Shown here: positions 38,750 through 56,940 of the stretch, piece by piece
Layout of the letters: each line of letters begins with the position of its first letter
How positions within the stretch are numbered: position 1 is the stretch's first letter
DNA from: Bacillota bacterium
Lineage (GTDB): Bacteria; Bacillota; Dethiobacteria; DTU022
Length of the DNA: 64,000 nt
Direction of reading: 5' to 3'
Assembly (NCBI GenBank): GCA_012797175.1
Contig: JAAZPQ010000194.1
Location: forward strand, 294-64,293
The notes under the pieces: generated by a model
What the model was told of the DNA's origin: nothing
What the model saw: the letters and a program-made list of their open reading frames with translations, nothing else
The model's database searches: none
Program-made: the position numbers and the translations under genes

Positions 38750-40222
38750 ATGAAACTTTTTGAGATGACGGCACTGGAGCTAAGCCGGCTGCTGCAGAAA
38801 AAAGAGGTCAGCGCGGTAGAGGTAACACAAAGTTTCATGGAGCACGCCGAAGCGGTAGAACCGCAGGTGCGGGCTTATATTACCCGAACCTCGGAAACAG
38901 CTCTTGCCGAAGCAGAAGCGGTGGACGAAAAACGGAGACGGGGTGAAACGATGCCCCTCCTGGCCGGGGTTCCCCTGGCCGTAAAAGATAATATCTGTAC
39001 TGGTGGGGTGCGGACTACCTGTGGCTCCCGTTTTCTTGAAGAATATTTGCCTCCGGAAGATGCTACCGTGGTAAAAAAAGCCCGTGCGGCGGGCCTGCCC
39101 CTTATGGGGAAGACCAATCTTGATGAATTTGCCATGGGCTCTTCGACGGAAAACTCGGCTTTCTTCCCCACGCATAACCCCTGGGATCTTCAGCGAGTTC
39201 CCGGTGGCTCCAGCGGCGGCTCTGCTGCCGCGGTCGCTGCCGGGATGGCGCCGCTGGCCTTGGGCACCGATACCGGCGGTTCGGTGCGCCAGCCGGCCGC
39301 TTTCTGCGGCCTGGTCGGTTTGCGTCCTACTTACGGGCGGGTTTCCCGGGCGGGAGTGATGGCCCTGGCCTCATCGTTAGACCAGGCCGGCCTTTTGGCC
39401 CTGACTACGGCCGACGCGGCCTTGTTGTTAGGTTTGATTGCCGGGGAAGACCGGGACGATCCCACCTCGTCTTCAGAACCGGTTGCCGATTACCTTTCCA
39501 CCTTGCAAGAGGGTGTTAAAGGGCTGCGGGTAGGGCTGCTTACTGAAAATATGCCGGAGCATTTTGATCGGGAGATCATCGCCGCGGTTCATCGGGCTGC
39601 CGCGGTGCTGGCGGAGAACGGGGCGGTGGTCGAAGAGCTCTCCCTACCGCATACCGGCTCCAGCCTGGAAGTATATCACCTGCTCTGCGCCGCCGAGGCC
39701 TCCTCTAACCTCGGCCGTTTCGACGGGCTTAGATACGGCCGCAGCGCGCGGGGGGAGAATGTTGCCGAGATGTACAGCCGGACACGGGGTGAGGGTTTCG
39801 GACCGGAGGTAAAACGGCGTATTCTTCTGGGCACCTGTATTCTGCGCGAAAGCCGGTATGAATCCTATTATCTACAGGCCCTGCGCGTGCGTACTTTAAT
39901 CCGCCGTGACTACGAGGCCGCCCTTAACCGTTTTGACCTGTTACTCGGGGCGGTTACCCCAACAACCGCTTTTAAACTAGGCGAAAAGAAAGACGATCCC
40001 GTGGCCATGTACCATGCCGATATCTGCCTCTTGCCCGGGCCCCTGGCCGGTATCCCGGCCCTCTCCGTTCCCGGCGGACTTGGCTCGGGGGGGCTGCCTA
40101 TCGGGGTCCAGCTGACGGCGGCACCCTTTCGGGAAGAGATTCTTTTCCGGGCGGCACATCTTTTAGAACAGGAGCGCGGCCCGGGGCCCTTGCGCTCCCA
40201 GCTTTTACCGCCTGCGTCGTAG
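38750..40222 (+). CDS. gatA: Glutamyl-tRNA(Gln) amidotransferase subunit A (amidase signature family)
   Basis: GGSSGGSAAAVAAG amidase signature and the Ser-cisSer-Lys context. Confidence 0.9.
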   Translation: MKLFEMTALELSRLLQKKEVSAVEVTQSFMEHAEAVEPQVRAYITRTSETALAEAEAVDEKRRRGETMPLLAGVPLAVKDNICTGGVRTTCGSRFLEEYLPPEDATVVKKARAAGLPLMGKTNLDEFAMGSSTENSAFFPTHNPWDLQRVPGGSSGGSAAAVAAGMAPLALGTDTGGSVRQPAAFCGLVGLRPTYGRVSRAGVMALASSLDQAGLLALTTADAALLLGLIAGEDRDDPTSSSEPVADYLSTLQEGVKGLRVGLLTENMPEHFDREIIAAVHRAAAVLAENGAVVEELSLPHTGSSLEVYHLLCAAEASSNLGRFDGLRYGRSARGENVAEMYSRTRGEGFGPEVKRRILLGTCILRESRYESYYLQALRVRTLIRRDYEAALNRFDLLLGAVTPTTAFKLGEKKDDPVAMYHADICLLPGPLAGIPALSVPGGLGSGGLPIGVQLTAAPFREEILFRAAHLLEQERGPGPLRSQLLPPAS

Positions 40223-40236
40223 AAGGAGGTTTACCG

Positions 40237-41667
40237 ATGGAATACGAAGCGATAATCGGCTTGGAGATACATGTCGAGTTGCAGACACGCTCCAAAATAT
40301 TTTGCGGATGTAGCACTGCCTTTGGAGCTGAACCGAACACAAACTGCTGCCCGGGTTGCCTGGGACTGCCCGGGACCCTGCCGGTGCTGAACCGCCGCGC
40401 CGTGGAATATGCTGTCCTAGCGGCCCTGGCATTGAACTGCCAAGTGCAGGAGAAAAGTGTTTTTGCCAGGAAAAACTATTTTTATCCCGACCTGCCAAAA
40501 GCCTACCAGATTTCGCAGGACGAGCAACCGCTGGCCTGGGGAGGCTACCTTGAAATCGATTTTCCCGAAGGAAGCCGCCGAGTCAACCTGGAGCGGGTTC
40601 ACCTCGAAGAAGAGGCCGGCAAGCTCATTCATGCGGGGGATTCAATCATCAGCGCCGCTTACTCCCTGGTTGACTACAACCGGGCCGGAGTACCGCTGCT
40701 AGAGATTGTCACTGCCCCGGAGCTTTATTCAGGAAGGGAGGCGCGGCTCTTTCTGCAGGAGCTGCGGACGCTGTTGCGCTACATCGGCGTCTCCGATGTG
40801 AAGATGGAAGAGGGCTCTCTACGCTGCGATGCCAATATTTCACTTCGCCCGGTCGGAACGAAAGAGCTGGGCACCCGGGCAGAGGTAAAGAACTTAAATT
40901 CTTTCCGGGCGGTGGAGCAGGCTCTGAACTACGAGGCTGAACGACAGGCCATGATTCTCGCCCGCGGGGGCGAGATTATCCAGTCTACCTGCCACTGGGA
41001 TGACAGCCGTAAGGCTACCGTGGTAATGCGGCTGAAAGAAGGGACCGCGGACTACCGCTACTTTCCAGAGCCGGATCTGCCGCCGCTTATTCTGGAGCGA
41101 TCGTCTATTGAGGCGCTCAAGGAAAGGCTTCCCGAGCTACCCCGACAGAGGCGCCGCCGTTTGCAAGAACAATACGATCTTACAGCCGAAGAGGCGGCCG
41201 TAATGACCGATTCCTGCGAGATGGCCGACTTTTTTGAGAAGGCGGCCGCAAGTTATCCTGACTACCGCAATTTGGTCAACTGGGTACTGGGAGATCTAAT
41301 CTACCAGCTTCGTGAAGCCGGGAAAGAGGTTGCTCAGCTCTCTCCCGCGCTGCTGATTGAGCTGCTCGAACTGTTCGACGCTGGTGAAATCAATCGCCCC
41401 GTAGCCAAGGAGCTTCTGGCGGAGATGATCAGAAGCGGCGCGTCACCCCGTCAAATGGTCCGGCAGCGGGGCCTGGGAAAAATATCGGGGCGGGAGGAGC
41501 TGGCTCCTCTGGTAGAACAGGTTATTGCCGAAAACCCCGATGCAGTGGAAAACTATCGCAAAGGAAAGAAGAAGGCGCTGGCCTTCCTTGTCGGCAAAGT
41601 GATGGCCTTAACTAGGGGCCGGGCCGACCCGCAGGAGTTAAACCGTCTTTTTGAGGAGAAGATTTAG
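40237..41667 (+). CDS. gatB: Asp/Glu-tRNA amidotransferase subunit B
   Basis: N-terminus MEYEAIIGLEIHVELQT... and a C-terminal GatB/YqeY domain. Confidence 0.9.
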   Translation: MEYEAIIGLEIHVELQTRSKIFCGCSTAFGAEPNTNCCPGCLGLPGTLPVLNRRAVEYAVLAALALNCQVQEKSVFARKNYFYPDLPKAYQISQDEQPLAWGGYLEIDFPEGSRRVNLERVHLEEEAGKLIHAGDSIISAAYSLVDYNRAGVPLLEIVTAPELYSGREARLFLQELRTLLRYIGVSDVKMEEGSLRCDANISLRPVGTKELGTRAEVKNLNSFRAVEQALNYEAERQAMILARGGEIIQSTCHWDDSRKATVVMRLKEGTADYRYFPEPDLPPLILERSSIEALKERLPELPRQRRRRLQEQYDLTAEEAAVMTDSCEMADFFEKAAASYPDYRNLVNWVLGDLIYQLREAGKEVAQLSPALLIELLELFDAGEINRPVAKELLAEMIRSGASPRQMVRQRGLGKISGREELAPLVEQVIAENPDAVENYRKGKKKALAFLVGKVMALTRGRADPQELNRLFEEKI

Positions 41668-45142: not shown

Positions 45143-45298
45143 TTTCAACAGTTTTCCAGCAAATCCGGAGGGGCTTCTTCGCAAGGGAAGCCCCTTAGAA
45201 ATTCAAGCCCGAGATAGCAGCAGGTTTTAGGTTTCTTCTGACGAATTACTTTTAAACAGGCAGATGTTATTCTAAAGGGGTGAAGGTATCAGTGAAGC

Positions 45299-45444
45299 GG
45301 AAAGGATTAGGAGGCGTACTTTTAGGGGTTTGGCTGATTGCCAAAGGTCTTTTACCATATTTGACCTTAACTATCCCCTACCAGGAGACGATCTTATCTG
45401 CCCTGGCGGTGGCCGCCGGTATTTTAATTATTATAGAGCGCTAA
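45299..45444 (+). CDS. Small hydrophobic protein (about 48 aa, two predicted TM helices)
   Basis: A GTG ORF not in the track (under 60 aa). RBS AAAGGGGTGAAGG; no homology recognised. Confidence 0.25.
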
Positions 45445-45457
45445 GGGGCAGTTCTGG

Positions 45458-46528
45458 ATGAAGATATTACATACGGCAGATCTACACCTTTGTGAAGGCG
45501 CTGCCGAACGGTGGGCCGCGTTGGAGAAACTTGCCGACCTGGCCCGGGAGAAAGGTGCTGCAGTTATGGCCATCTCCGGCGACCTTTTTGATCAGCATGT
45601 TGATGCGGCGCTTCTCCGGCCCCGGCTGCGGAAAATATTTAGGGCGGGGGATTTTATCACGGTGATCCTCCCCGGTAACCATGATCATAGCGTTTATCAA
45701 GGCGGCCTTTTTTTTGGCGAGGGGGTCAGGGTGATCCGTGATTGGAGAGAGCCGGTTGAAGTTGATGGAGTTAGATTCTGGGGGCTGCCTTTTGAACCGC
45801 TGGATAGCGCTGCACTGGTTCTCAGGCTACAAAATCTAGCTGGCCTGATACCGGCAGAGGGAACCGATATCTTGCTTTATCATGGGGAGCTTCTCGATGC
45901 CTTCTATGCGCGGGAGGAGCTCGGCGATGAGGGCAACAAGCGCTATATGCCGGCCCGGCTCGATTATTTCCGGATTCTTCCTGTAAGCTGTATCCTGGCG
46001 GGCCACTTTCATAGTCGCTTTGCTGCCTGGGAACTGGGTCCGGGGCGCTTTTTTGTTTACCCGGGCTCGCCTGTCGCGGTAACGCGCCGTGAAATCGGGC
46101 CGCGCAAAGCTCATCTTTGGCAAGAAGGAGCTTCCCCTGAGGAGATAGTTCTCGATACCTTTCACTTTGTCGAGATGAGGCTAATCTTAGATCCCTTTGA
46201 CCGGGAAGAGGCCGATCCGGTCACCGTGCTCCGGCAGCGGTTGGCCGGCCTGCATCCAAAAGCGCGGCTCTTGCTAAGCGTGCAGGGGTTCTACGATGGG
46301 CAGAAATCCGGTTACAGCGAAGTAGAGCTGGTCGATGCGCTGAAAGAGGCTGCTGGTGAGAGGCTCTACGGTGAGCCGGAATTTAGCTTTATGGATATCA
46401 GGCAGGTTCTGGAAGATCCTTTGTTCCAAGCTTTTCATCAAAAATTGACCGCGGCAGACTACCCTGTGGAACAGAAGAAGCAGATCCGGAGGGCGGCAAT
46501 CCGGGCGATGATGGAGGTGCGGGCATGA
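45458..46528 (+). CDS. DNA repair exonuclease, SbcD/Mre11-like metallophosphoesterase (YhaO-like)
   Basis: MKILHTADLHL, GDLFD and LPGNHDH phosphoesterase motifs. Its stop overlaps the start of the next gene (ATGA). Confidence 0.75.
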   Translation: MKILHTADLHLCEGAAERWAALEKLADLAREKGAAVMAISGDLFDQHVDAALLRPRLRKIFRAGDFITVILPGNHDHSVYQGGLFFGEGVRVIRDWREPVEVDGVRFWGLPFEPLDSAALVLRLQNLAGLIPAEGTDILLYHGELLDAFYAREELGDEGNKRYMPARLDYFRILPVSCILAGHFHSRFAAWELGPGRFFVYPGSPVAVTRREIGPRKAHLWQEGASPEEIVLDTFHFVEMRLILDPFDREEADPVTVLRQRLAGLHPKARLLLSVQGFYDGQKSGYSEVELVDALKEAAGERLYGEPEFSFMDIRQVLEDPLFQAFHQKLTAADYPVEQKKQIRRAAIRAMMEVRA

Positions 46529-48843
46529 GGATCAGCGAGTTTTCTCTACAGCGTTACGGGCCCCTTTTAGAAAGCGGGCGCCGAAAGCTGGGCCGGTTTA
46601 ACCTTTTTTACGGCCCCAATGAGGACGGAAAAACCCTGACCATAGATGCTCTGGTCAAGCTGTTGCTAGGCAGGGGCCTGCGCCTTTTTAACGCAATTAA
46701 CCGGGTTGACGAATCGCCGGAAGGCTACCTGGTTCTTGAACATAAGGGGGCCGTGCTGAAGCTGCCCGAAGCTGGTTTCCTCCCCGGGTTGCTGCAGATA
46801 AGCCCCGAAGAATGCCGGAATATCTTTGTGGTCCGTGACAGTGACCTGGCCCTGGCCAGGGAGAGCGATTTTTACAGGGGCGTAGCTCACCGCCTGACCG
46901 GGCTGCACAGCGCGGAGATCGGGGAGATCACGGGAAAACTTCGGGAGCTGGGCCGGCTGACCCCGGGCCACGACTTTCAGAATACCAGCCCCTTGAAGCT
47001 AAAGAGCAATCTTCGGAAAGCAGGCGCGCTGGTAGATTCAATGGGCGGCCTCGTCGAGCGCCTGGAGCGGGACGGTTACGACCGGGCAGAGCAGCGACTG
47101 GTCGATCTGAAGAGACAGCTGTGCGAGAAGGAACAGCGACTGGAGCAGCTCGAGGCTGCCCGTAAGCGGGAGCTCTTTGAAAAGGGGAGCAGCGCCTTAA
47201 AGATCCTGCGAAGTACTCTTGAAAAAATTGCCGCGTTGCGAGATTTTAATTCGGCAGACGAAGCCAGATGGCAGCATCTCCTGGATAATCTTGCCGGGAA
47301 TCAGGAAAGAGAAAAGCGGCTACGTGAAGAGCTGGCCCGCGAAGAGGAGTTGGCCCGTCGCGCTGCCGGCAGGGTGAAGATTGCCACGGCTGCGGTAGAG
47401 GAGTACCTGCAGAGAAAGGAGCTTCTCGTCGATAGAGTGACACCATTACTGAAACAATCGGCCGAACTGAGTTGCACCTTGAAGAAAAAAGAGCCTGCCA
47501 GCAGGCGCCGCTTTCTGGGCCGGACCGCTATTTTTTCAGCGCTACTCTTTCTACTGGCCTTAGCCGGGCTGTTACTCCGGCCGTCCTGGTGGCTTTACCT
47601 GTTTTTAGCTGCCAGCGGCGGAATACTCCTTTATTATGGCTGGCTTAAGATCGACCTGCTGCGGGAGCGGGGAGCTCTCGCGGAGATCAACCGGGAGCTT
47701 GCCTTCGAGGCGGCCAGGCTGGGCTTTGATGCATCCGATCCGGTTGAGCTTCAGACGGCTATTGATGAATTTTACCGTGGCCTGGAGGCAGCAGAAAAGC
47801 AGTTGAGTGAAGCGGATAAAGAGGCGGCTGTCCGGAAAAATATCTGTGAGCGGCTCGCCTCCGAACTGGATGGATTACTCCGTCAGATCGACGCTGACCG
47901 GAGATCACTGCGCCAGTTGAAAGAGAAGTTGCAGGTTGATACGATCGAGGCTTACCGGGAAAAAATGCGTCTAAAAAGAGATCTGCTAAGCAAGATTGAC
48001 CGGCAGAAGGCGATTTTAGAAAGCCACTTCGGAGATGCCGAAGCGGGGGCGAATCTTGAAAAGGCGCTTGCTGCCTGGCAGAAAGAGCTCTCCTGTTATT
48101 TGCCCTTCCGCGAAAAGGCCCTGGGGCTTTCGTACAGCGAAGAGCAGGCGGCCAACCTGAAAAGTGAGCGGGAGCTGCTCCTCGAGAAGAGAGACACTTT
48201 GGGATACCGGTTGGAGCAGTATCGCGACGAGCTGCGGCTAATTGAAAAAGAGCTCAATGAGATCTTGAACCTGTTCGGTAGAAGTTACCTTCCCTGCCAG
48301 ACGATCCCGGATCTGAGAAAGGCTGTCGAAGAATTAAGCTGCTGGGTCAGTGCCCAGAAAGAGAAGAAGGGGGCTGCGGAGGCGGCGATTAAAATTTTCA
48401 ATGAAATTAAACTGGAAGAAGAAATAAAGATCGGGGAGCTTTTTGACAAAGAGAGCTCCGTGAGTGATTATTACCGCCGCATCACCGGAAACCGCTACCA
48501 GGAGGTGCTCTTTGACAGTGAAAACAAAGAGATCATGGTGCGCTGCCAGGACGGATCGTCCCTGGCAGCCTCAAAGCTTTCCGGGGGCGCCTACGACCAG
48601 CTCTATTTTGCAATCCGCCTGGCACTCGGTGAAAAACTGCTTCACGGTGAAAAAGGTTTTTTTATCCTCGACGATCCTTTTATCAAGGCCGATCCGCACC
48701 GGCTGGCCATCCAGCTGGAGATGCTTAAAACAGCTGTCTCCCGGGGCTGGCAGGTACTCTATTTTAGTGCCAAGGGTGAAGTAAAGGAGGCGCTGCAAAA
48801 AGAGATTAACCGCGGCCTGGTCAAGCTCTTCACGGTTAGCTAA
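46525..48843 (+). CDS. SbcC/RecN-like AAA ATPase with a long coiled coil interrupted by two TM helices (YhaN-like)
   Basis: N-terminal Walker A FYGPNEDGKT. C-terminal signature KLSGGAYDQ, Walker B FFILDDP and D-loop. The central coiled coil contains the hydrophobic hairpin AIFSALLFLLALAGLLL...WWLYLFLAASGGILLYYGWL. Confidence 0.7.
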   Translation: MRISEFSLQRYGPLLESGRRKLGRFNLFYGPNEDGKTLTIDALVKLLLGRGLRLFNAINRVDESPEGYLVLEHKGAVLKLPEAGFLPGLLQISPEECRNIFVVRDSDLALARESDFYRGVAHRLTGLHSAEIGEITGKLRELGRLTPGHDFQNTSPLKLKSNLRKAGALVDSMGGLVERLERDGYDRAEQRLVDLKRQLCEKEQRLEQLEAARKRELFEKGSSALKILRSTLEKIAALRDFNSADEARWQHLLDNLAGNQEREKRLREELAREEELARRAAGRVKIATAAVEEYLQRKELLVDRVTPLLKQSAELSCTLKKKEPASRRRFLGRTAIFSALLFLLALAGLLLRPSWWLYLFLAASGGILLYYGWLKIDLLRERGALAEINRELAFEAARLGFDASDPVELQTAIDEFYRGLEAAEKQLSEADKEAAVRKNICERLASELDGLLRQIDADRRSLRQLKEKLQVDTIEAYREKMRLKRDLLSKIDRQKAILESHFGDAEAGANLEKALAAWQKELSCYLPFREKALGLSYSEEQAANLKSERELLLEKRDTLGYRLEQYRDELRLIEKELNEILNLFGRSYLPCQTIPDLRKAVEELSCWVSAQKEKKGAAEAAIKIFNEIKLEEEIKIGELFDKESSVSDYYRRITGNRYQEVLFDSENKEIMVRCQDGSSLAASKLSGGAYDQLYFAIRLALGEKLLHGEKGFFILDDPFIKADPHRLAIQLEMLKTAVSRGWQVLYFSAKGEVKEALQKEINRGLVKLFTVS

Positions 48844-48895
48844 TCTTAGAATTGGGCATCATAATTCGCTTGGACTCTGCGGGGGGAATAATTAT

Positions 48896-50131
48896 TTGAG
48901 GAGCAGAAATGCGATGCTGTTCACAGCGGTATGGATCATTCTGGGGACAGCGGCCCTGCTTTACCTGGGTTCTATTCTTGTCGGCATGCTGGCGGCTGCC
49001 CCCGGGAGCGATGCGGTGGAGCGTTATTTCAGCGAGCCTTTTCTTGCTCGTGCCGCGGCCTACCAAAAAGCCGTCCTGACCGTCTTTTTGCTACAGCAGG
49101 TGCTCTACCTGGTTTTTCTGGTCGCTGTTGCCTATACCGCCCTGTGCTATTTCCAGGCCGCACCACGGCTCTCTCTGCCCGCTGCAGCGGGCTATATCCT
49201 GCTCTTTTTAATTGCAGCCCAACTGATAAACCTGCCTTTCGATTTCTATCGCGGGTCTATCATCGAACGGCGCTTTGGCCTATCCGCTCAAGCGGTGGCC
49301 GGATGGTTTACTGATTACGGCAAAAGCGCCCTCATCAGCCTGCTGCTCTCCGCGGTTGCGCTAACCGGTCTCTACGTTCTCATCACCTGGCGCCCGGCAC
49401 ACTGGTGGTTCTTTGCCGGGACAGCTTTTGCCCTTTTTCTGATCCTGGGCAGTTATCTATATCCGTTACTAATCGACCCTCTTTTCTACCGCTTTACAGA
49501 GCTGGAAGACCGGCAGCTGCAAGAGGAGATCATGAAGATCTCCAGTAAGGCGGGCCTTGAGGTGGAGCGCATCCTCGTCGCTGATGCCAGCCGCCGTACC
49601 CATAAAGCGAATGCTTACTTTAGCGGGATTGGCGGAACCAAGCGGATTGTGATCTACGATAATTTACTGGAGCGCTTTACCCCTGAAGAGGTGCTTGCGG
49701 TGATCGCCCATGAGATGGGGCACTGGCGCTACGGGCACCTCTGGCGGGGACTGTTGATCAGCGCCGCCGGCTCATTTGTTGCCTTTTACGCTCTGCAGCT
49801 AATCCTGCAGAAGGTGGGGCTACATGCTGATTTCAGAGCCCTGCCGTTAATCTTACTTTTCTTCGCCCTACTCTCTCTGGCCGCAGTCCCGGCTCAAAAT
49901 GCGCTTTCGCGGTGCCGTGAACAAGAAGCAGATCGCTATGCTTTTGCTCTCATTGGGGACCCGGCGCCCTTTGTTTCACTTTATCAAAAGCTGGCCCGGA
50001 CCAACCTCTCGGTAGTGCAGCCCCATCCCCTTTTAAAGGCGGCGCTTTACACCCATCCTCCGTTGATGGAGCGTATTGAAGCAGCACAGCAGGAGGCGGT
50101 GGAGAGAGGGGAGGATGGTAAAAGAGAGTAG
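48896..50131 (+). CDS. M48-family zinc metallopeptidase (HtpX/Ste24-like), membrane-bound
   Basis: HEMGHW (HExxH) plus N-terminal TM helices. The start is either 48896 (TTG) or ATG 48914. Confidence 0.75.
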   Translation: MRSRNAMLFTAVWIILGTAALLYLGSILVGMLAAAPGSDAVERYFSEPFLARAAAYQKAVLTVFLLQQVLYLVFLVAVAYTALCYFQAAPRLSLPAAAGYILLFLIAAQLINLPFDFYRGSIIERRFGLSAQAVAGWFTDYGKSALISLLLSAVALTGLYVLITWRPAHWWFFAGTAFALFLILGSYLYPLLIDPLFYRFTELEDRQLQEEIMKISSKAGLEVERILVADASRRTHKANAYFSGIGGTKRIVIYDNLLERFTPEEVLAVIAHEMGHWRYGHLWRGLLISAAGSFVAFYALQLILQKVGLHADFRALPLILLFFALLSLAAVPAQNALSRCREQEADRYAFALIGDPAPFVSLYQKLARTNLSVVQPHPLLKAALYTHPPLMERIEAAQQEAVERGEDGKRE

Positions 50132-50176
50132 GGCTGTGCCACAGCTCTACCGGTTACATGACTAAGGAGGCTTTTT

Positions 50177-50917
50177 ATGAAATTGACCGTGCTTGGATGT
50201 TGCGGGCCTTATCCCGCAGCGGGCGGGGCCTGCTCGGGCTACCTTTTGGAAGAGGACGGATACCGGGTTTTGATTGACTGCGGCAACGGTGTCTTAAGCC
50301 GGCTACAGCAGCATCTGAAATCCTGGGAGCTGGAGGCGGTGCTACTTTCGCACCTGCATTTTGATCATACCGCCGACCTGATGGTGTTGCGCTACGCCCT
50401 GGACTATGCCCGGGCCCGGGGTTTGCGCCTTCGGCCGCTGCCGCTTTACTCGCCCTCGGAGCCGGCTTCTGAATTCCGGAGGTTGCTCTACAAAGAGCTC
50501 TTCGAACCGGTTCCGATAAGTGCTGGTGAGACGTTGTCGCTGGGGCCGTTTTTCTTAACATTCCTGGAGACGATCCATTCCTTACCTTGCCTGGCCATGC
50601 GTATCGAGACAGAAAAAGGTGTTCTGGTTTACTCCGGGGATACCGAATACTTTGACGGGCTAGCTGGGTTTGCCGCCGGTGCCGATCTTTTTCTCTGTGA
50701 AGCCAACTTTCAAGAAGAGGATATGGCACAGTCTCCCGCAAACCATCTTTCAGCAGCTGGCGCAGCCCGTCTCGCCGCCCGCGCTGGTGTAAGCAGGCTT
50801 TTGCTGACCCATTTTCACCCCGAGCGCCAGCTGGCGCTCTCCCTTGAAGAGGCCCGGAAAAACTTCGCGGCGGCGGAGTTGGCGCAGGAAGGGGAATCTT
50901 ACCGGGTTGCCAGGTAA
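50177..50917 (+). CDS. MBL-fold metallo-hydrolase (RNase Z/BN-like, short form)
   Basis: LSHLHFDHTADL HxHxDH motif; 246 aa. Confidence 0.7.
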   Translation: MKLTVLGCCGPYPAAGGACSGYLLEEDGYRVLIDCGNGVLSRLQQHLKSWELEAVLLSHLHFDHTADLMVLRYALDYARARGLRLRPLPLYSPSEPASEFRRLLYKELFEPVPISAGETLSLGPFFLTFLETIHSLPCLAMRIETEKGVLVYSGDTEYFDGLAGFAAGADLFLCEANFQEEDMAQSPANHLSAAGAARLAARAGVSRLLLTHFHPERQLALSLEEARKNFAAAELAQEGESYRVAR

Positions 50918-51094
50918 AAGAAAGGCCGCCAGCGCGCTTGCTAACGGTTAAAGTTCAGGTTAGCTTACCGGCAAAGAAGGAAAGGCAAATAAAGAGTATA
51001 TCTGATGAGATAATTTTTATTAAGCAGGAATTGGCGAACTTTTGTTGAAGTTAAAACTTAGTTGAAGTTACTGGGTACAAGTAAGTAATTTACG

Positions 51095-51250
51095 GGATTT
51101 AGTTCAGGGAAGCCGGTGCAAATCCGGCGCGGTCCCGCCACTGTGAGGGGAATCGGCCCTGCATGATGCCACTGTCACTATTGGATGATGGGAAGGCGCA
51201 GTGCTGAAAAGAACCCAAGCCAGGAGACCTACTATTTCCCGCTGGTTACA
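51095..51250 (+). promoter_or_regulatory. Cobalamin (adenosylcobalamin/B12) riboswitch aptamer
   Basis: The conserved blocks are readable in order: AGGGAAG, GGTGCAAATCC, CCCGCCACTGTGA (B12 box), GGGAAGGC and GCCAGGAGACCT. A possible promoter lies upstream: -35 TTGAAG near 51062 and -10 TAATTT near 51086. Confidence 0.85.
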
Positions 51251-51313
51251 CTGCTCTACGCGAGATGGGGAAGTGGTCTTTTTGTTTGAGCGATTCTGCT
51301 TGGGCAACTCTTG

Positions 51314-51343
51314 CCCCGTTTCTGCATAGAGACGGGGCTTTTT
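51314..51343 (+). terminator. Intrinsic terminator, likely the riboswitch expression platform
   Basis: ccccgt / acgggg stem with a 12-nt loop, followed by CTTTTT. Confidence 0.5.
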
Positions 51344-51450: not shown

Positions 51451-51548
51451 AGAGCTGACCGTCGCCCGGGGAGGAAGCGTTTTTTGATCTTTCAGCTAAA
51501 TTGTTGAAGCAGGATCTCTAACCGGTAAAGACCAGGGGAGTGAAGATA

Positions 51549-52286
51549 ATGAAACGGACTTATCTAGTACCGCTACTGCTGCTGTTGTTGGCGGGATTGG
51601 CGATCCCGCTGTGGTATTCCGTCGGGAGGGGTGGTGAGCAAAACGAGGCTCCGGCGGCGGAGGAGTACCTTTTGGAGAATAAACTTCAAATACCAGATGG
51701 TGGCGAGGCCGAACCTTCCCTCGAAGTTAAAGGGGAAGCCGGAACCGCACTCTCAGAAAAGGTGGAGAAAGCCGGACCGTCTCCGGAAGAGCCATCAACG
51801 GATAGGCCATCCCCGGAACAAAAAAATAAGCCACAGGCCAAGAAGCGGTCCGCCCTGAAAAGCTCTCCTTCTTCTCCCGGGCAATCAAGTAGCGTTTCTC
51901 CGAAAAAAGAAAAAAATGAGGGCTCTTCTGCAGACCGCGTTATCTGCACAGTGCAAATGAAGATTTTCGGTCAGGGAGGCAAACTGCTTTATGGGCCCAA
52001 CCGCGTCGATATCAAGGAAGGTAACCGGTGGGGAGCCACGGTTTTAGGCGCCCTAGAGGCGGCGGACGGGGTTTCTTATAATTTAAAAGAATATAGCTAT
52101 GGCCCTTATGTCGAATCGATTTATGACCTGGAGGCTAAAGGTATGTCCGGCTGGATGTACCAGGTAAATGACAAGAAAGGTGCTGTCGGGGCTGACAAAC
52201 ATGCTCTTCAATCGGACGATCGTATCATCTGGTGGTACAGTGAAAGTTATGATCAACCAGTACCAAGATGGCAAGATCTTCCATAA
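51549..52286 (+). CDS. Secreted DUF4430-domain protein, a putative cobalamin-binding accessory protein
   Basis: Signal peptide, Pro/Ser/Lys/Glu low-complexity linker, and a C-terminal domain (ICTVQMKIFGQGGKLLYGP...GWMYQVNDKKG...IIWWYSE) typical of DUF4430. ATG 51549 follows AGGGGAG. Confidence 0.6.
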   Translation: MKRTYLVPLLLLLLAGLAIPLWYSVGRGGEQNEAPAAEEYLLENKLQIPDGGEAEPSLEVKGEAGTALSEKVEKAGPSPEEPSTDRPSPEQKNKPQAKKRSALKSSPSSPGQSSSVSPKKEKNEGSSADRVICTVQMKIFGQGGKLLYGPNRVDIKEGNRWGATVLGALEAADGVSYNLKEYSYGPYVESIYDLEAKGMSGWMYQVNDKKGAVGADKHALQSDDRIIWWYSESYDQPVPRWQDLP

Positions 52287-52378
52287 CACCAGGCAGATCG
52301 ATCAAGCTAGCTTTTAACCACACCACCGTCGTGGCGGTTGTAGTTAGGTAGTTTAAAATCTGGGGAAAGGATCAGTTT

Positions 52379-53308
52379 ATGCTCGAGAATTTTTGCTATA
52401 AGCATAAGGGCGCATTTTTGCAAACTCTTCACCCGGTAGCGGCATTGACTTACCTGGCGGCATTGCTGCTGCGCCCCCTGATCTTCAACCACCCGCTTTA
52501 CCTGGTGGGCATACTGCTGGCCTCTCTGCTCGCCGCTGTGGTTTCAGATGCACTTGGCGAATGGTTTTCATATTTTACGGTGGGGCTATGGATGGCAGCT
52601 CTAGTGCTCTTTCTGAACCCCCTGCTTTGCCAGAGCGGGGAGACGGTCCTTTTGTCCCTGCCTTCTCTGCCGCTAATCGGAAGACGTTTTTTTACCCTGG
52701 AAGCGCTCTGCTACGGTGCGGCCATGGGTATACGGCTACTGGGTGTGATCACCGCTTTCGCTCTTTACAATACCCTGGTGCATCCCGATAAAGTCACCGG
52801 CCTTTTATCTCGTTTTGCCTGGAAATCGGCGCTGGTAGTCTCTATGTCGACACGGATGATCCCGGCGCTGGCCCGGGATCTAGCCGCCGCCCGGGAGGTC
52901 CAGCAGATGCGGGGGGTTGACTTCAGCTCGGGAAACTTGCGGCAGCGGCTGCAGAAATACGGTTGGCTGTTGGAGCTGCTGCTGGTCTCTTCCCTGGAAG
53001 GCTCTCTCCAGACAGCGGAAGCCATGCAGGCGCGGGCTTTTGGCTGCGGTCCTCGTAGCCATTATCGTCATGAATTGGTTCGCCCCAGGGATTATCTTTG
53101 CTTTCTAAGCGGTCTTTTTGCCCTGTTGCTCTCGGTTTATGCCCGGGTGCGGGGTTATTCTGCTTTCTCTTTTTATCCAAAGCTTGCTCAACCGGCCGCC
53201 GGAAATATCGTTCTTTTCTGGTTTCTTATGCTCATGTTCTGTTTGCTTTTTCCTTCAATCCTCGCTTGGGGGTGGCAACGCTGGCCTTTTTTGAGATCCA
53301 GGATTTAA
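52379..53308 (+). CDS. Energy-coupling factor transporter transmembrane (T) component (EcfT/CbiQ family)
   Basis: Polytopic protein with the EcfT-like coupling region (...SRMIPALARDLAAAREVQQMRG). It lies upstream of the duplicated ATPase. Confidence 0.7.
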   Translation: MLENFCYKHKGAFLQTLHPVAALTYLAALLLRPLIFNHPLYLVGILLASLLAAVVSDALGEWFSYFTVGLWMAALVLFLNPLLCQSGETVLLSLPSLPLIGRRFFTLEALCYGAAMGIRLLGVITAFALYNTLVHPDKVTGLLSRFAWKSALVVSMSTRMIPALARDLAAAREVQQMRGVDFSSGNLRQRLQKYGWLLELLLVSSLEGSLQTAEAMQARAFGCGPRSHYRHELVRPRDYLCFLSGLFALLLSVYARVRGYSAFSFYPKLAQPAAGNIVLFWFLMLMFCLLFPSILAWGWQRWPFLRSRI

Positions 53309-54969
53309 CTTACTATTACCCTACCCGCGATAAACCGTCATTGGACCAGATCAACCTGCAGATATCCGAAGGTGAGTTTCTTCTAGTTACCGGGTGCTCC
53401 GGCTCGGGGAAGTCAACCCTGGCCCGTCTGATCGCCGGGTTAATTCCTGAATTTTACGGCGGGAGGCTGCAGGGGAAGGTCTTGCTGCGCGGGGTAAAGC
53501 TTCAGGGCAGGCAGCGCAGCGCCTTGCATACCGAGGTGGGCATTGTTTTTCAAGATCCGGAGCGGCAGCTGGTGATGACCTCGGTCGAAGCGGAGATCGC
53601 CTTCGGTCTTGAAAACCTGGGGCTCCCCCGGCCGGAGATGTTCCGGCGCGTCGCTGAAGTGATGACCTTTTTAAACCTTTTGCCGCTGCGCGATCAATTT
53701 ACTGCCGCCCTTTCCGGGGGGGAGAAACAGAAGCTAGTTCTCGGCTCTGTCATCGCCATGCATCCGCGAATTCTTGTTTTGGATGAGCCGACCTCTCAGC
53801 TTGATCCGGTTGCGGCAACAGATATTTTTAACCTCGTTGAATCCTTGAATCGCGAGATGGGCTATACCGTAATTTTAATCGAGCAGCGCCTGGAGAGATG
53901 TTTTCACCTGGCCGACCGCCTGGTTGTGATGGAAGAGGGAAAAATCATCTGCGATCAGGCCCCGGGTGAGGCTGCCCGCTGGCAGGTGAAAGAGGGTTTA
54001 CCTTTTATACCGCCGGTAGCCCGGTTTTTTGCTGCTCTTTCTCCCGGGTCCGACTCCCCAATCCCCCTGACCGTAAGAGAAGGGCGCCGGGAACTGCAAA
54101 ACAGGTTGCCGTCTTTTCCGCCCCGGGTGAACAAGCGGGATTGTCGAAAAAAATCTTCAGCGCAGGAGCAACAGAAGCCTTTACTTCTCCAGGCGCGTGG
54201 TCTCTGGTATGCCTATCCGAACGGCCCGGAGGCAGTGAGGGGGTTATCTTTGCAGATAAGAGAGGGGGAGCTGGTTGCCGTCATCGGTCCCAACGCCTCC
54301 GGGAAAAGCACCCTCTTGAAGCTGTTAGCGGGGATAATCAAGCCGGACCGGGGGACGGTGCAGCTGCAAGGGATAAACACCCGCAACCTGCCGCCGTCTG
54401 AAATGGGGCGTAATATCGGCTATCTCTCTCAAAACCCAAATGATTACCTGACCCGGGATACAGTGGAGGATGAGTTGAAATTTACGCTAGAGAACTTTAA
54501 CCTGCCGGATAACGGTATCGGCATTAAAATATTACAACGGCTTGGGCTTGACCACCTCCGGCAGGCCAACCCCAGGGACCTGAGCAGTGGTGAGCGCCAG
54601 CGGGTGGCCTTAGCCTCTATCCTGGTGACGGAGCCGCCGCTGCTACTGCTCGACGAGCCCACCCGGGGGATCGATTGCCGCTTGAAAATAGGGCTCGGCA
54701 GCCTGCTCCAAGAGATAGCCTCTTCCGGTAGGACGGTTGTAGTAGTGACCCATGATCTGGAATTCGCCGTGGAATATGCCGCCAGGGTGGTAATGCTCTG
54801 TGACGGGAAGGTAGCCTGTGACGGCCCCCGGCAAATTCTCGGGGACTCTATTTTTTATGCGCCTCAAATGGCCCGACTGTTCCGGGGCCAGGCCGAGGGT
54901 ATTCTGACTGTTGATGAAGCTCTTGCCATTATGCAGGGGGGTGGCGCCGGTGCCTGTCAGGACGCTTAA
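53272..54969 (+). CDS. Fused duplicated ECF transporter ATPase (EcfA-EcfA')
   Basis: Two ABC cassettes with Walker A GCSGSGKST and GPNASGKST, signatures LSGGEKQK and LSSGERQR, and Walker B LVLDEP and LLLDEP. The start is uncertain: GTG 53272 overlaps the end of ecfT, and the ORF track starts at 53098. Confidence 0.75.
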   Translation: MATLAFFEIQDLTYYYPTRDKPSLDQINLQISEGEFLLVTGCSGSGKSTLARLIAGLIPEFYGGRLQGKVLLRGVKLQGRQRSALHTEVGIVFQDPERQLVMTSVEAEIAFGLENLGLPRPEMFRRVAEVMTFLNLLPLRDQFTAALSGGEKQKLVLGSVIAMHPRILVLDEPTSQLDPVAATDIFNLVESLNREMGYTVILIEQRLERCFHLADRLVVMEEGKIICDQAPGEAARWQVKEGLPFIPPVARFFAALSPGSDSPIPLTVREGRRELQNRLPSFPPRVNKRDCRKKSSAQEQQKPLLLQARGLWYAYPNGPEAVRGLSLQIREGELVAVIGPNASGKSTLLKLLAGIIKPDRGTVQLQGINTRNLPPSEMGRNIGYLSQNPNDYLTRDTVEDELKFTLENFNLPDNGIGIKILQRLGLDHLRQANPRDLSSGERQRVALASILVTEPPLLLLDEPTRGIDCRLKIGLGSLLQEIASSGRTVVVVTHDLEFAVEYAARVVMLCDGKVACDGPRQILGDSIFYAPQMARLFRGQAEGILTVDEALAIMQGGGAGACQDA

Positions 54970-56903: not shown

Positions 56904-56940
56904 TCTTATAAGCAATTAAATTTTGAAACGGAGGTTGCCC

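Follow-up and report, generated by a model that had tools for sequence, protein, structure and literature searches.

A conserved Mre11/Rad50-like gene pair of SbcEF-like architecture, with a predicted membrane hairpin at the position of the zinc hook

Can an ATPase of the Rad50 kind be held at the membrane by the tip of its own coiled coil? The question is raised by a locus in the DNA of a Bacillota bacterium (Dethiobacteria, DTU022; assembly GCA_012797175.1, contig JAAZPQ010000194.1), of which a stretch of 64,000 nucleotides (nt), called the window below, was analysed. Four open reading frames (ORFs) lie on its + strand at 45458-50917, and encode proteins of 356, 772, 411 and 246 amino acids (aa): a metallophosphoesterase, an ATP-binding cassette (ABC) ATPase, a zinc protease and a hydrolase of the metallo-β-lactamase (MBL) fold. 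An initial annotation, made from the sequence alone, had placed the four genes at these positions, all of which were confirmed, and had read the first two as a YhaO/YhaN-like pair whose ATPase might be tethered to the membrane. From the evidence presented here, we consider it fairly probable that the pair makes a membrane-tethered, SbcEF-like (Mre11/Rad50-like) DNA-end processing complex, in which the ATPase would be inserted into the membrane and DNA would be the substrate.

The first gene (45458..46528, + strand) encodes a metallophosphoesterase of the Mre11/SbcD fold, similar to YhaO/SbcF, hereafter the nuclease. The protein matches Pfam Metallophos (5.1e-11), and scores 39 bits against the NCBIfam model of the SbcD N-terminus (TIGR00619), under the cut-off of 77.65. 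Its AlphaFold2 (AF2) model is of high quality, with a predicted local distance difference test score (pLDDT) of 89.4 and a predicted template modelling score (pTM) of 0.85. When this model was compared with the PDB using Foldseek, the 50 top matches were all Mre11 or SbcD structures (best 1.5e-13), as the annotation had led us to expect; the best among them were full-length T. maritima Mre11 chains complexed with Rad50. In an alignment of 25 homologs, little or no variation is seen in the metal-ligand motifs D8-x-H10, G41-D42, G73-N74-H75-D76, H142 and G182-H183-x-H185. The nuclease domain is followed by a capping domain and by two C-terminal helices (aa 321-355), located as the Rad50-binding helix-loop-helix of Mre11. 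Hydropathy analysis revealed no hydrophobic segment in the 356-aa nuclease.

The second gene (46525..48843, + strand) begins before the first one ends. The nuclease stop codon and the ATPase start codon overlap in an ATGA at 46525-46528, which is legible in the sequence, and an overlap of 4 or 10 nt between the two genes recurs in related loci; the translational coupling seen by the annotation is therefore upheld. The encoded protein of 772 aa is a Rad50/SbcC-like ABC ATPase with the architecture of YhaN/SbcE. Its ABC motifs are split between the two ends of the protein: the Walker A motif GPNEDGKT is found at aa 30-37 (46612..46635), the signature LSGGAYDQ at aa 685-692 (48577..48600) and the Walker B motif FFILDDP at aa 712-718 (48658..48678). 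In a 24-sequence alignment, N32, E33, G35, K36 and T39 around Walker A are invariant, as are L685, S686, G688, D691 and Q692 in the signature. The AF2 model (pLDDT 79.7) is almost all helical between aa 159 and 639, and its top Foldseek match is Rad50 (7zr1, 6.6e-14), followed by Smc5/6, MukB, condensin and JetC. The annotation had assigned the protein to the Rad50/SbcC-like ATPases on these split motifs, and both the motifs and the fold matches bear it out.

At the level of sequence, the profile of the family retrieved from the PDB only the C-lobes of Rad50 (4.7e-11). The C-terminus scores 38 bits against NCBIfam Rad50_Sulf (4.2e-10), far under the cut-off of 1000 bits. The N-terminus matches Pfam AAA_27 (PF13514) at 24.0 bits for a cut-off of 22, over aa 1-49 and positions 1-52 of the 206 of the profile only. 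PF13514 is present in the precomputed annotation of many homologs, one of which is labelled 'uncharacterized protein YhaN' by JGI. No CxxC zinc-hook motif was found anywhere in the 772 aa.

What, then, stands in the middle of the helical region? The annotation had noticed two adjacent hydrophobic helices there, and hydropathy, the AF2 model and the homologs all agree with it. The first helix spans aa ~333-352 (TAIFSALLFLLALAGLLL) and the second aa 356-375 (WWLYLFLAASGGILLYYGWL); they are linked by an R-P-S turn and bordered on both sides by K/R-rich flanks. The Kyte-Doolittle mean over 19 residues peaks at 2.17 over aa ~329-357, and the AF2 model places helices at 329-351 and 355-398 (pLDDT ~71-82). 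We designate aa 333-375 (47521..47649, + strand) as a predicted transmembrane (TM) helical hairpin, a call that relies on hydropathy, helix length, the lack of charges within the helices, the K/R-rich flanks and conservation.

Conservation was measured on 247 full-length homologs, pooled from two independent searches. A central window with a Kyte-Doolittle value of 1.6 or higher is present in 246 of them, and the hydrophobic span, with a median of 51 aa, reaches 38 aa or more in 236. The centre of the hairpin falls at 0.457 ± 0.006 of the protein length, and in none of the 247 proteins was a hydrophobic window found outside the hairpin; D, E, K and R make up 36% of all their residues. The hydrophobic stretch was also present in all of the 120 first-listed homologs. 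In homologs, the helices of the hairpin are 18-23 residues long, contain no D, E, K or R, have a Kyte-Doolittle mean of ~2-3, and are joined by a 3-residue xPS turn between basic flanks. We conclude that the conserved hairpin is not due to chance. Its features are the hallmarks of a membrane-inserted helical hairpin, and suggest that both of its ends would lie in the cytoplasm.

Is such a hairpin peculiar to this ATPase? Two Bacillaceae-type loci (L083 and L084) were reached by way of AAA_27 fragments, themselves matched by an approximate 74-aa bait of the YhaN-type N-terminus that carries no evidence of its own. Their gene order is YhzD, yhaO, yhaN and yhaM (OB and HD domains), with Spore_YhaL and PrsA in one of them. 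The yhaN genes were read frame by frame. In L083 a hairpin of the form ICFLLLLMNIGVLLTSVFL-DNRT-LLFTSVIFFVLIVLAFVLY is found at ~0.49 of the gene, and in L084 it reads LATMLFYLLFSGFFLWSL-TTMHY-LSMAGALIGLIVLSYTAW. Both assemblies are frameshifted across the locus, with genes in pieces of 60-300 aa, as is typical of uncorrected long-read assemblies, and for this reason only fragments of yhaN are found in the protein collection. As a central hairpin is carried by Bacillaceae-type yhaN, it is common to the YhaN type and not distinctive of the 772-aa ATPase. The comparison with YhaN/YhaO that the annotation had called for is apt where architecture is concerned, given the AAA_27 match above cut-off and the shared central hairpin.

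Sequence similarity to the Bacillus proteins was also measured. Two stretches of the heads are weakly but significantly similar between the ATPase of the window and Bacillus-type YhaN: one of 48 aa, with 38% identity (E 2e-4), and one of 84 aa, with 29% (E 1e-8). No homology between the central regions of the ATPase family and of Bacillus YhaN was detectable (hhalign probability 1.3%). The nuclease family profile matched Bacillus yhaO fragments weakly, at 27 bits.

To follow the pair in other genomes, one genome per species was scanned, which yielded 292 relatives, and 80 loci were kept from these; two more came from a metagenome look-up, making 82 loci in total. In each of the 79 loci for which upstream DNA was available, the gene just before that of the ATPase encodes the nuclease, and the two overlap or abut. 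Nearly every host is an uncultured anaerobe. Among the hosts are the Bacillota (many labelled Syntrophomonadaceae), the Dehalococcoidia and other Chloroflexota, Aerophobetes, Aminicenantes and Atribacteria, and further the Thermotogota, Planctomycetota, Sumerlaeota, Thermodesulfobacteriota and a few archaeal metagenome-assembled genomes (MAGs). An exhaustive profile search at E<=1e-30 recovered 590 clusters (50% identity), and the best 150 are nearly all ~770 aa long. This ~770-aa ATPase family is thus tight and sizeable, and no NCBIfam model specific to it was found.

Two observations made among these loci deserve mention. On three contigs binned as archaeal (L015, L023 and L074, assigned to Methanobacteriota, Thermoplasmatota and Bathyarchaeia), 2.7-21 kb in length, the pair is 34-38% identical to that of the window; this reflects either horizontal transfer or contamination during binning. 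On a 461-kb Chloroflexia contig (L080), the ATPase gene is present as two ORFs, 8001-8606 and 8607-10337; a frameshift or an in-frame stop has interrupted it, or the assembly is in error.

How might such a pair work? In the mechanism that we propose, the ATPase folds back on itself, and its N- and C-terminal lobes make a single ABC head, as the motifs and the fold show, while its long helices would make an antiparallel arm, as modelled. The tip of this arm would be the two-helix hydrophobic hairpin, at the position where Rad50 has its CxxC zinc hook. The hairpin would enter the cytoplasmic membrane from inside, the K/R-rich flanks, the head and the nuclease all staying in the cytoplasm. By analogy with Mre11-Rad50, two ATPases would dimerise through heads engaged by ATP and take up two nuclease subunits as a dimer, giving a 2:2 complex, and the hairpins may pair within the bilayer, substituting for the hook. 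The outcome would be an ATP-gated clamp for DNA ends, with its nuclease, placed up to ~25 nm below the membrane, and, close to the envelope, the complex would process DNA ends that result from breaks or that come in from outside.

Processing of ends on the envelope side matches the traits reported for SbcE of B. subtilis (Krishnamurthy et al. 2010, PMC2811018): the protein acts in the repair of double-strand breaks, contributes mildly to transformation, and gathers in foci at the poles of competent cells. That article was the sole experimental paper found in a literature search on membrane-anchored YhaN or Rad50. SbcE is described there as an SMC-like protein, nearest to SbcC and devoid of CxxC, whose unique central domain, hydrophobic over its first half and with a conserved proline, is kept by all homologs; the authors do not term this domain transmembrane. 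An interaction between SbcE and YhaO was observed in a yeast two-hybrid assay. Overexpressed SbcE was insoluble, and the isolated central domain was likewise reported as insoluble, not as membrane-bound (PMC2811018).

Several observations weigh against a membrane-tethered relative of SbcE and Mre11-Rad50, and they concern different parts of the proposal. The first is the active site of the ATPase. Walker B ends in DD, not in DE, with Asp717 at the position of the catalytic Glu of ABC ATPases, and this is conserved in the family; where Bacillus YhaN has its H-loop His, the family has the invariant Lys750 (YFSAK aligned with FFTCH); and no invariant Q-loop Gln is evident in the family alignment. 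Because of these three features, ATP turnover may differ from that of Rad50, and the sequence suggests that the hydrolysis chemistry of the whole family is atypical. The second is the geometry of the arm: its N-side (aa ~159-327) and its C-side (aa ~376-639) differ by ~90 residues, so that the hairpin may be off a simple symmetric apex. The third is the link with YhaN. The C-lobe score of the family profile is 46 bits with YhaN and 45 bits with P. furiosus Rad50, the Bacillus-type sequences being frameshifted fragments, and the hairpin shared with YhaN could be convergent. The fourth is regulation: no Cheo/LexA box (CGAAC-N4-GTTCG, up to 2 mismatches) was found upstream of 45458, and the total for the window equals chance expectation, an uninformative result in that the LexA box of this lineage may differ from the consensus used. 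The last is localisation, since, in ~10% of growing B. subtilis cells, SbcE fused to yellow fluorescent protein (SbcE-YFP) is seen as discrete nucleoid foci (PMC2811018), a pattern no less compatible with a free complex than with one bound to the membrane.

This last point is the main argument for the alternative that survives best, namely that the hairpin is a buried dimerisation core, or a hydrophobic hinge, which takes the place of the zinc hook in a complex that is soluble, associated with the nucleoid and not anchored in the membrane. The central domain of SbcE that was reported only as insoluble also speaks for it, and so does the turn of the hairpin, which contains R or K in 14 of 24 sequences, something unusual for an extracytoplasmic mini-loop. 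We nevertheless regard this alternative as unlikely: helices of 18-23 residues free of any charge and flanked by basic residues, maintained across phyla, are the signature of lipid-exposed segments and not of a protein core, and in a soluble hinge of four helices, these would normally stay amphipathic.

A second alternative concerns the extent of the system. Do the four genes of the block work together, for instance with the protease processing or regulating the hairpin protein, and the MBL enzyme degrading a nucleotide signal, or RNA or DNA ends? They lie on the same strand with short gaps, 52 nt between the ATPase and protease genes (70 nt with the other possible start of the latter, see below) and 45 nt between the protease and MBL genes, and no strong terminator is found within the block. 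It is preceded by a terminator-like hairpin at 45403-45419, and a cobalamin riboswitch at 51083-51250 (RF00174, 105 bits) opens the next transcription unit, downstream of the MBL gene. For these reasons, the four genes can form one operon, as far as sequence alone may tell. The third gene of the Bacillus operon, yhaM, also encodes a nuclease.

The identities given by the annotation to the third and fourth genes were confirmed by Pfam. The third (48896..50131, + strand) encodes a Ste24-type M48 zinc metalloprotease of 411 aa when read from a TTG, with matches to Peptidase_M48 (5.2e-35) and Peptidase_M48_N (3.6e-19), a HEMGH motif, and at least 7 hydrophobic segments, as in a polytopic membrane protein. 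An in-frame ATG at 48914, 11 nt after GAGGAG, would give 405 aa, and may be a more likely start than the TTG at 48896. The fourth (50177..50917, + strand) encodes a YhfI/BA1088-type MBL-fold phosphodiesterase of 246 aa, which matches Pfam Lactamase_B_2 and, in the PDB, 1zkp (B. anthracis BA1088, 4.6e-52) and 6kns (1.6e-47), which we take to be B. subtilis YhfI. Against the NCBIfam model for cyclic-nucleotide-degrading phosphodiesterase it scores 148 bits, under the cut-off of 400. The homolog in locus L001 bears the Pfam annotation Anti-Pycsar_Apyc1.

The MBL gene is downstream of the ATPase gene in 30 of the 82 loci, immediately next to it in 28, and in at least 3 different flanking contexts, which speaks for a common function of the four genes. 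All 30 belong to a single Bacillota clade, and in no locus outside the Bacillota does an MBL gene adjoin the pair. This clade keeps a long-range gene order, gatA-gatB-purA, then the pair and the MBL gene, then flavin reductase-selA-selB; the window retains this frame, with gatA at 38750, gatB at 40237 and selA at 56923. Because the Bacillota loci share such synteny, the adjacency of the MBL gene may be inherited gene order, and the enzyme itself is of an ordinary YhfI/BA1088 type found in many genomes without the pair. The window, L003 and L063 are the only loci with an M48 gene placed after that of the ATPase and before that of the MBL enzyme; in L039 it follows the pair, and no MBL gene is found there. 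This recurrence would favour a role for the protease, but it amounts to four loci in all, the window included.

Outside the Bacillota clade, 116 neighbour genes gave 196 Pfam families, none seen more than 3 times. A 164-aa HIT-domain protein is encoded 1-2 genes from the pair in 6 loci (L005, L006, L036, L059, L078 and L082), from Syntrophomonadaceae, Deltaproteobacteria, Clostridia and Thermodesulfobacteriota. Aprataxin, which deadenylates DNA ends, is a HIT enzyme; the protein occurs near the pair too sparsely for an association to be called. A glyoxalase and a Zn-ribbon protein are found near the pair in 4 loci. Clustering of neighbours over the 82 loci and Pfam counts over the 116 neighbours gave sporadic recurrences only, and a conserved third or fourth partner was rejected.

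The pair is found in 79 of 79 loci with upstream DNA, the MBL gene is limited to one clade and the M48 gene to four loci, and therefore the conserved unit is the nuclease-ATPase pair, with the MBL gene as a lineage-specific third gene and the M48 gene as a local insertion. The M48 protease is a later, lineage-specific addition whose sole tie to the pair is adjacency in those four loci. Neighbourhood conservation, which the annotation had proposed as a check, accordingly holds for the pair and does not generally hold for the M48 and MBL genes, in whose place unrelated housekeeping genes are found elsewhere. The four genes did not turn out to be one conserved unit, and that they constitute one functional system is in our view quite unlikely.

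Weakest of all is the idea, also contained in the annotation, that the pair defends the cell against phages or plasmids by cutting DNA that enters through the membrane: pairs of a Rad50/SMC-like ATPase and a nuclease are common in defence (Lamassu, Wadjet, PARIS, Gabija), a membrane position would suit the interception of incoming DNA, and weak, partial PADLOC matches were obtained (nuclease to PDC-S10, 1.3e-7; ATPase to mad3, 5.6e-5), but the likeness to PADLOC-DB entries is only that of generic ATPases and phosphoesterases and is nowhere significant, no copy was found by tblastn in 72,556 plasmids and 50,697 phage genomes and none was confirmed by a pattern scan of viral contigs, the 116 neighbour genes show no defence-island signature, and the pair sits in a stable, syntenic housekeeping region (gatAB...selAB), so that we reject defence as very improbable. 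A role in segregation, the other possibility mentioned there, was not supported.

Some features of the window around the block were recorded as well. A 50-codon ORF (45292-45444, + strand) with a GTG start and a Shine-Dalgarno-like motif (GGGGTGAAGG) codes for a small protein of two hydrophobic helices, and stops 13 nt ahead of the nuclease start. It is not conserved in related loci, and no significant family match was found for it (weakly holin-like, E 0.08). On the other side, the riboswitch is followed by a terminator-like hairpin (51313-51338) and by genes at 51540-54969 (+ strand) for a DUF4430 protein, a CbiQ-like membrane protein and a double ABC ATPase. This riboswitch-headed set of three genes is probably a B12-regulated uptake operon of the energy-coupling factor (ECF) type; relative to the synteny in related MAGs, it is an insertion between the MBL gene and bla-like/selA/selB. 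The CbiQ-like ORF (52379-53308) and the double ABC ATPase ORF (53098-54969) overlap by 211 nt, and the TTG start of the latter was probably placed too far upstream.

What would a membrane-tethered SbcEF-like complex change? Rad50, SbcC and the SMC proteins are seen as soluble machines bound to the chromosome, whose arm tips dimerise by means of a zinc hook or a hinge. A membrane-spanning hairpin at the position of the hook would hold a DNA-end clamp and its nuclease against the cytoplasmic side of the membrane, and would offer a concrete explanation for the insolubility of SbcE and for its polar foci in competent B. subtilis cells. That a membrane anchor may stand in for the hook is an under-appreciated idea, yet one already implicit in Bacillus SbcE. 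The finding of the hairpin leaves the identity of the enzymes unchanged, and the M48 and MBL genes add nothing established to it. Compact, widespread and free of accessory genes, the family is a convenient subject for studying the function of the hook and end processing tethered to the envelope. A bolder view can be put forward tentatively, as possible and no more than that: the ~770-aa proteins, with no fewer than 590 clusters at 50% identity, would make up a large separate family of membrane-inserted Rad50-like ATPases, distinct from SbcC and from Bacillus YhaN, with a TM hairpin as their hook. Together with Bacillus SbcE, they would represent an overlooked class of membrane-tethered Mre11/Rad50 machines acting on DNA at the envelope, be it DNA on its way in, DNA caught at the septum, or ends and regions of the chromosome attached to the membrane; many uncultured anaerobes would have them as their main or only Mre11/Rad50 system.

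How does the locus compare with known systems? The MBL protein aligns over its full length with YhfI and BA1088, relatives of phage Apyc1 and of RNase Z, with E values from 1e-47 to 5e-52. Unlike the YhfI/BA1088 type, its gene is linked in an operon to a Rad50-like pair, and the cut-off of the NCBIfam equivalog is not reached; in Bacillus, yhfI is presumably unlinked to yhaN. The gene comes third in the operon, as the exoribonuclease gene yhaM does in Bacillus, a parallel in position that carries no evidence of a shared role.

Mre11-Rad50/SbcCD provides the best PDB fold matches for both proteins of the pair. Common to the nuclease and Mre11 are the fold, all the metal-ligand motifs, the capping domain and the C-terminal helices; common to the ATPase and Rad50 are an ABC head split by a long helical arm, with antiparallel pairing as modelled, and the organisation in a two-gene operon. 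The differences lie in the zinc hook, replaced by the hydrophobic hairpin in the 772-aa protein, in arms shorter than those of Rad50, in the DD of Walker B, and in the Lys at the H-loop. Neither protein comes near the cut-off of the curated models, the margin being wide for both SbcD (39 against 77.65 bits) and Rad50 (38 against 1000 bits).

With SbcE/SbcF (YhaN/YhaO), the pair shares an SbcD-like nuclease gene directly upstream of an SMC-like ATPase gene, and a third gene downstream for a nuclease or phosphodiesterase. The ATPase itself has in common with SbcE an AAA_27-type N-terminus, the absence of a CxxC hook, a central hydrophobic two-helix hairpin, and a Walker B of the hhhhDD type followed by F (IIDDSF in Bacillus, ILDDPF here). 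The two kinds differ in size (772 aa here against ~960-975 aa for Bacillus YhaN), in the signature (canonical LSGG here, degenerate LSQAT in the Bacillus type), in the H-loop residue (Lys here, His in Bacillus YhaN), in the downstream gene (an MBL-fold enzyme here, the HD/OB exoribonuclease YhaM in Bacillus), and in their hosts (mainly uncultured anaerobes of many phyla here, Bacilli for SbcE/SbcF). Likeness to Bacillus YhaN in sequence is confined to the head lobes, and for the C-lobe is equalled by the score with archaeal Rad50; therefore the pair was filed as SbcEF-like by architecture. On that architecture, we class it as an uncharacterised relative of the little-studied SbcEF-like kind, and not as a new system.

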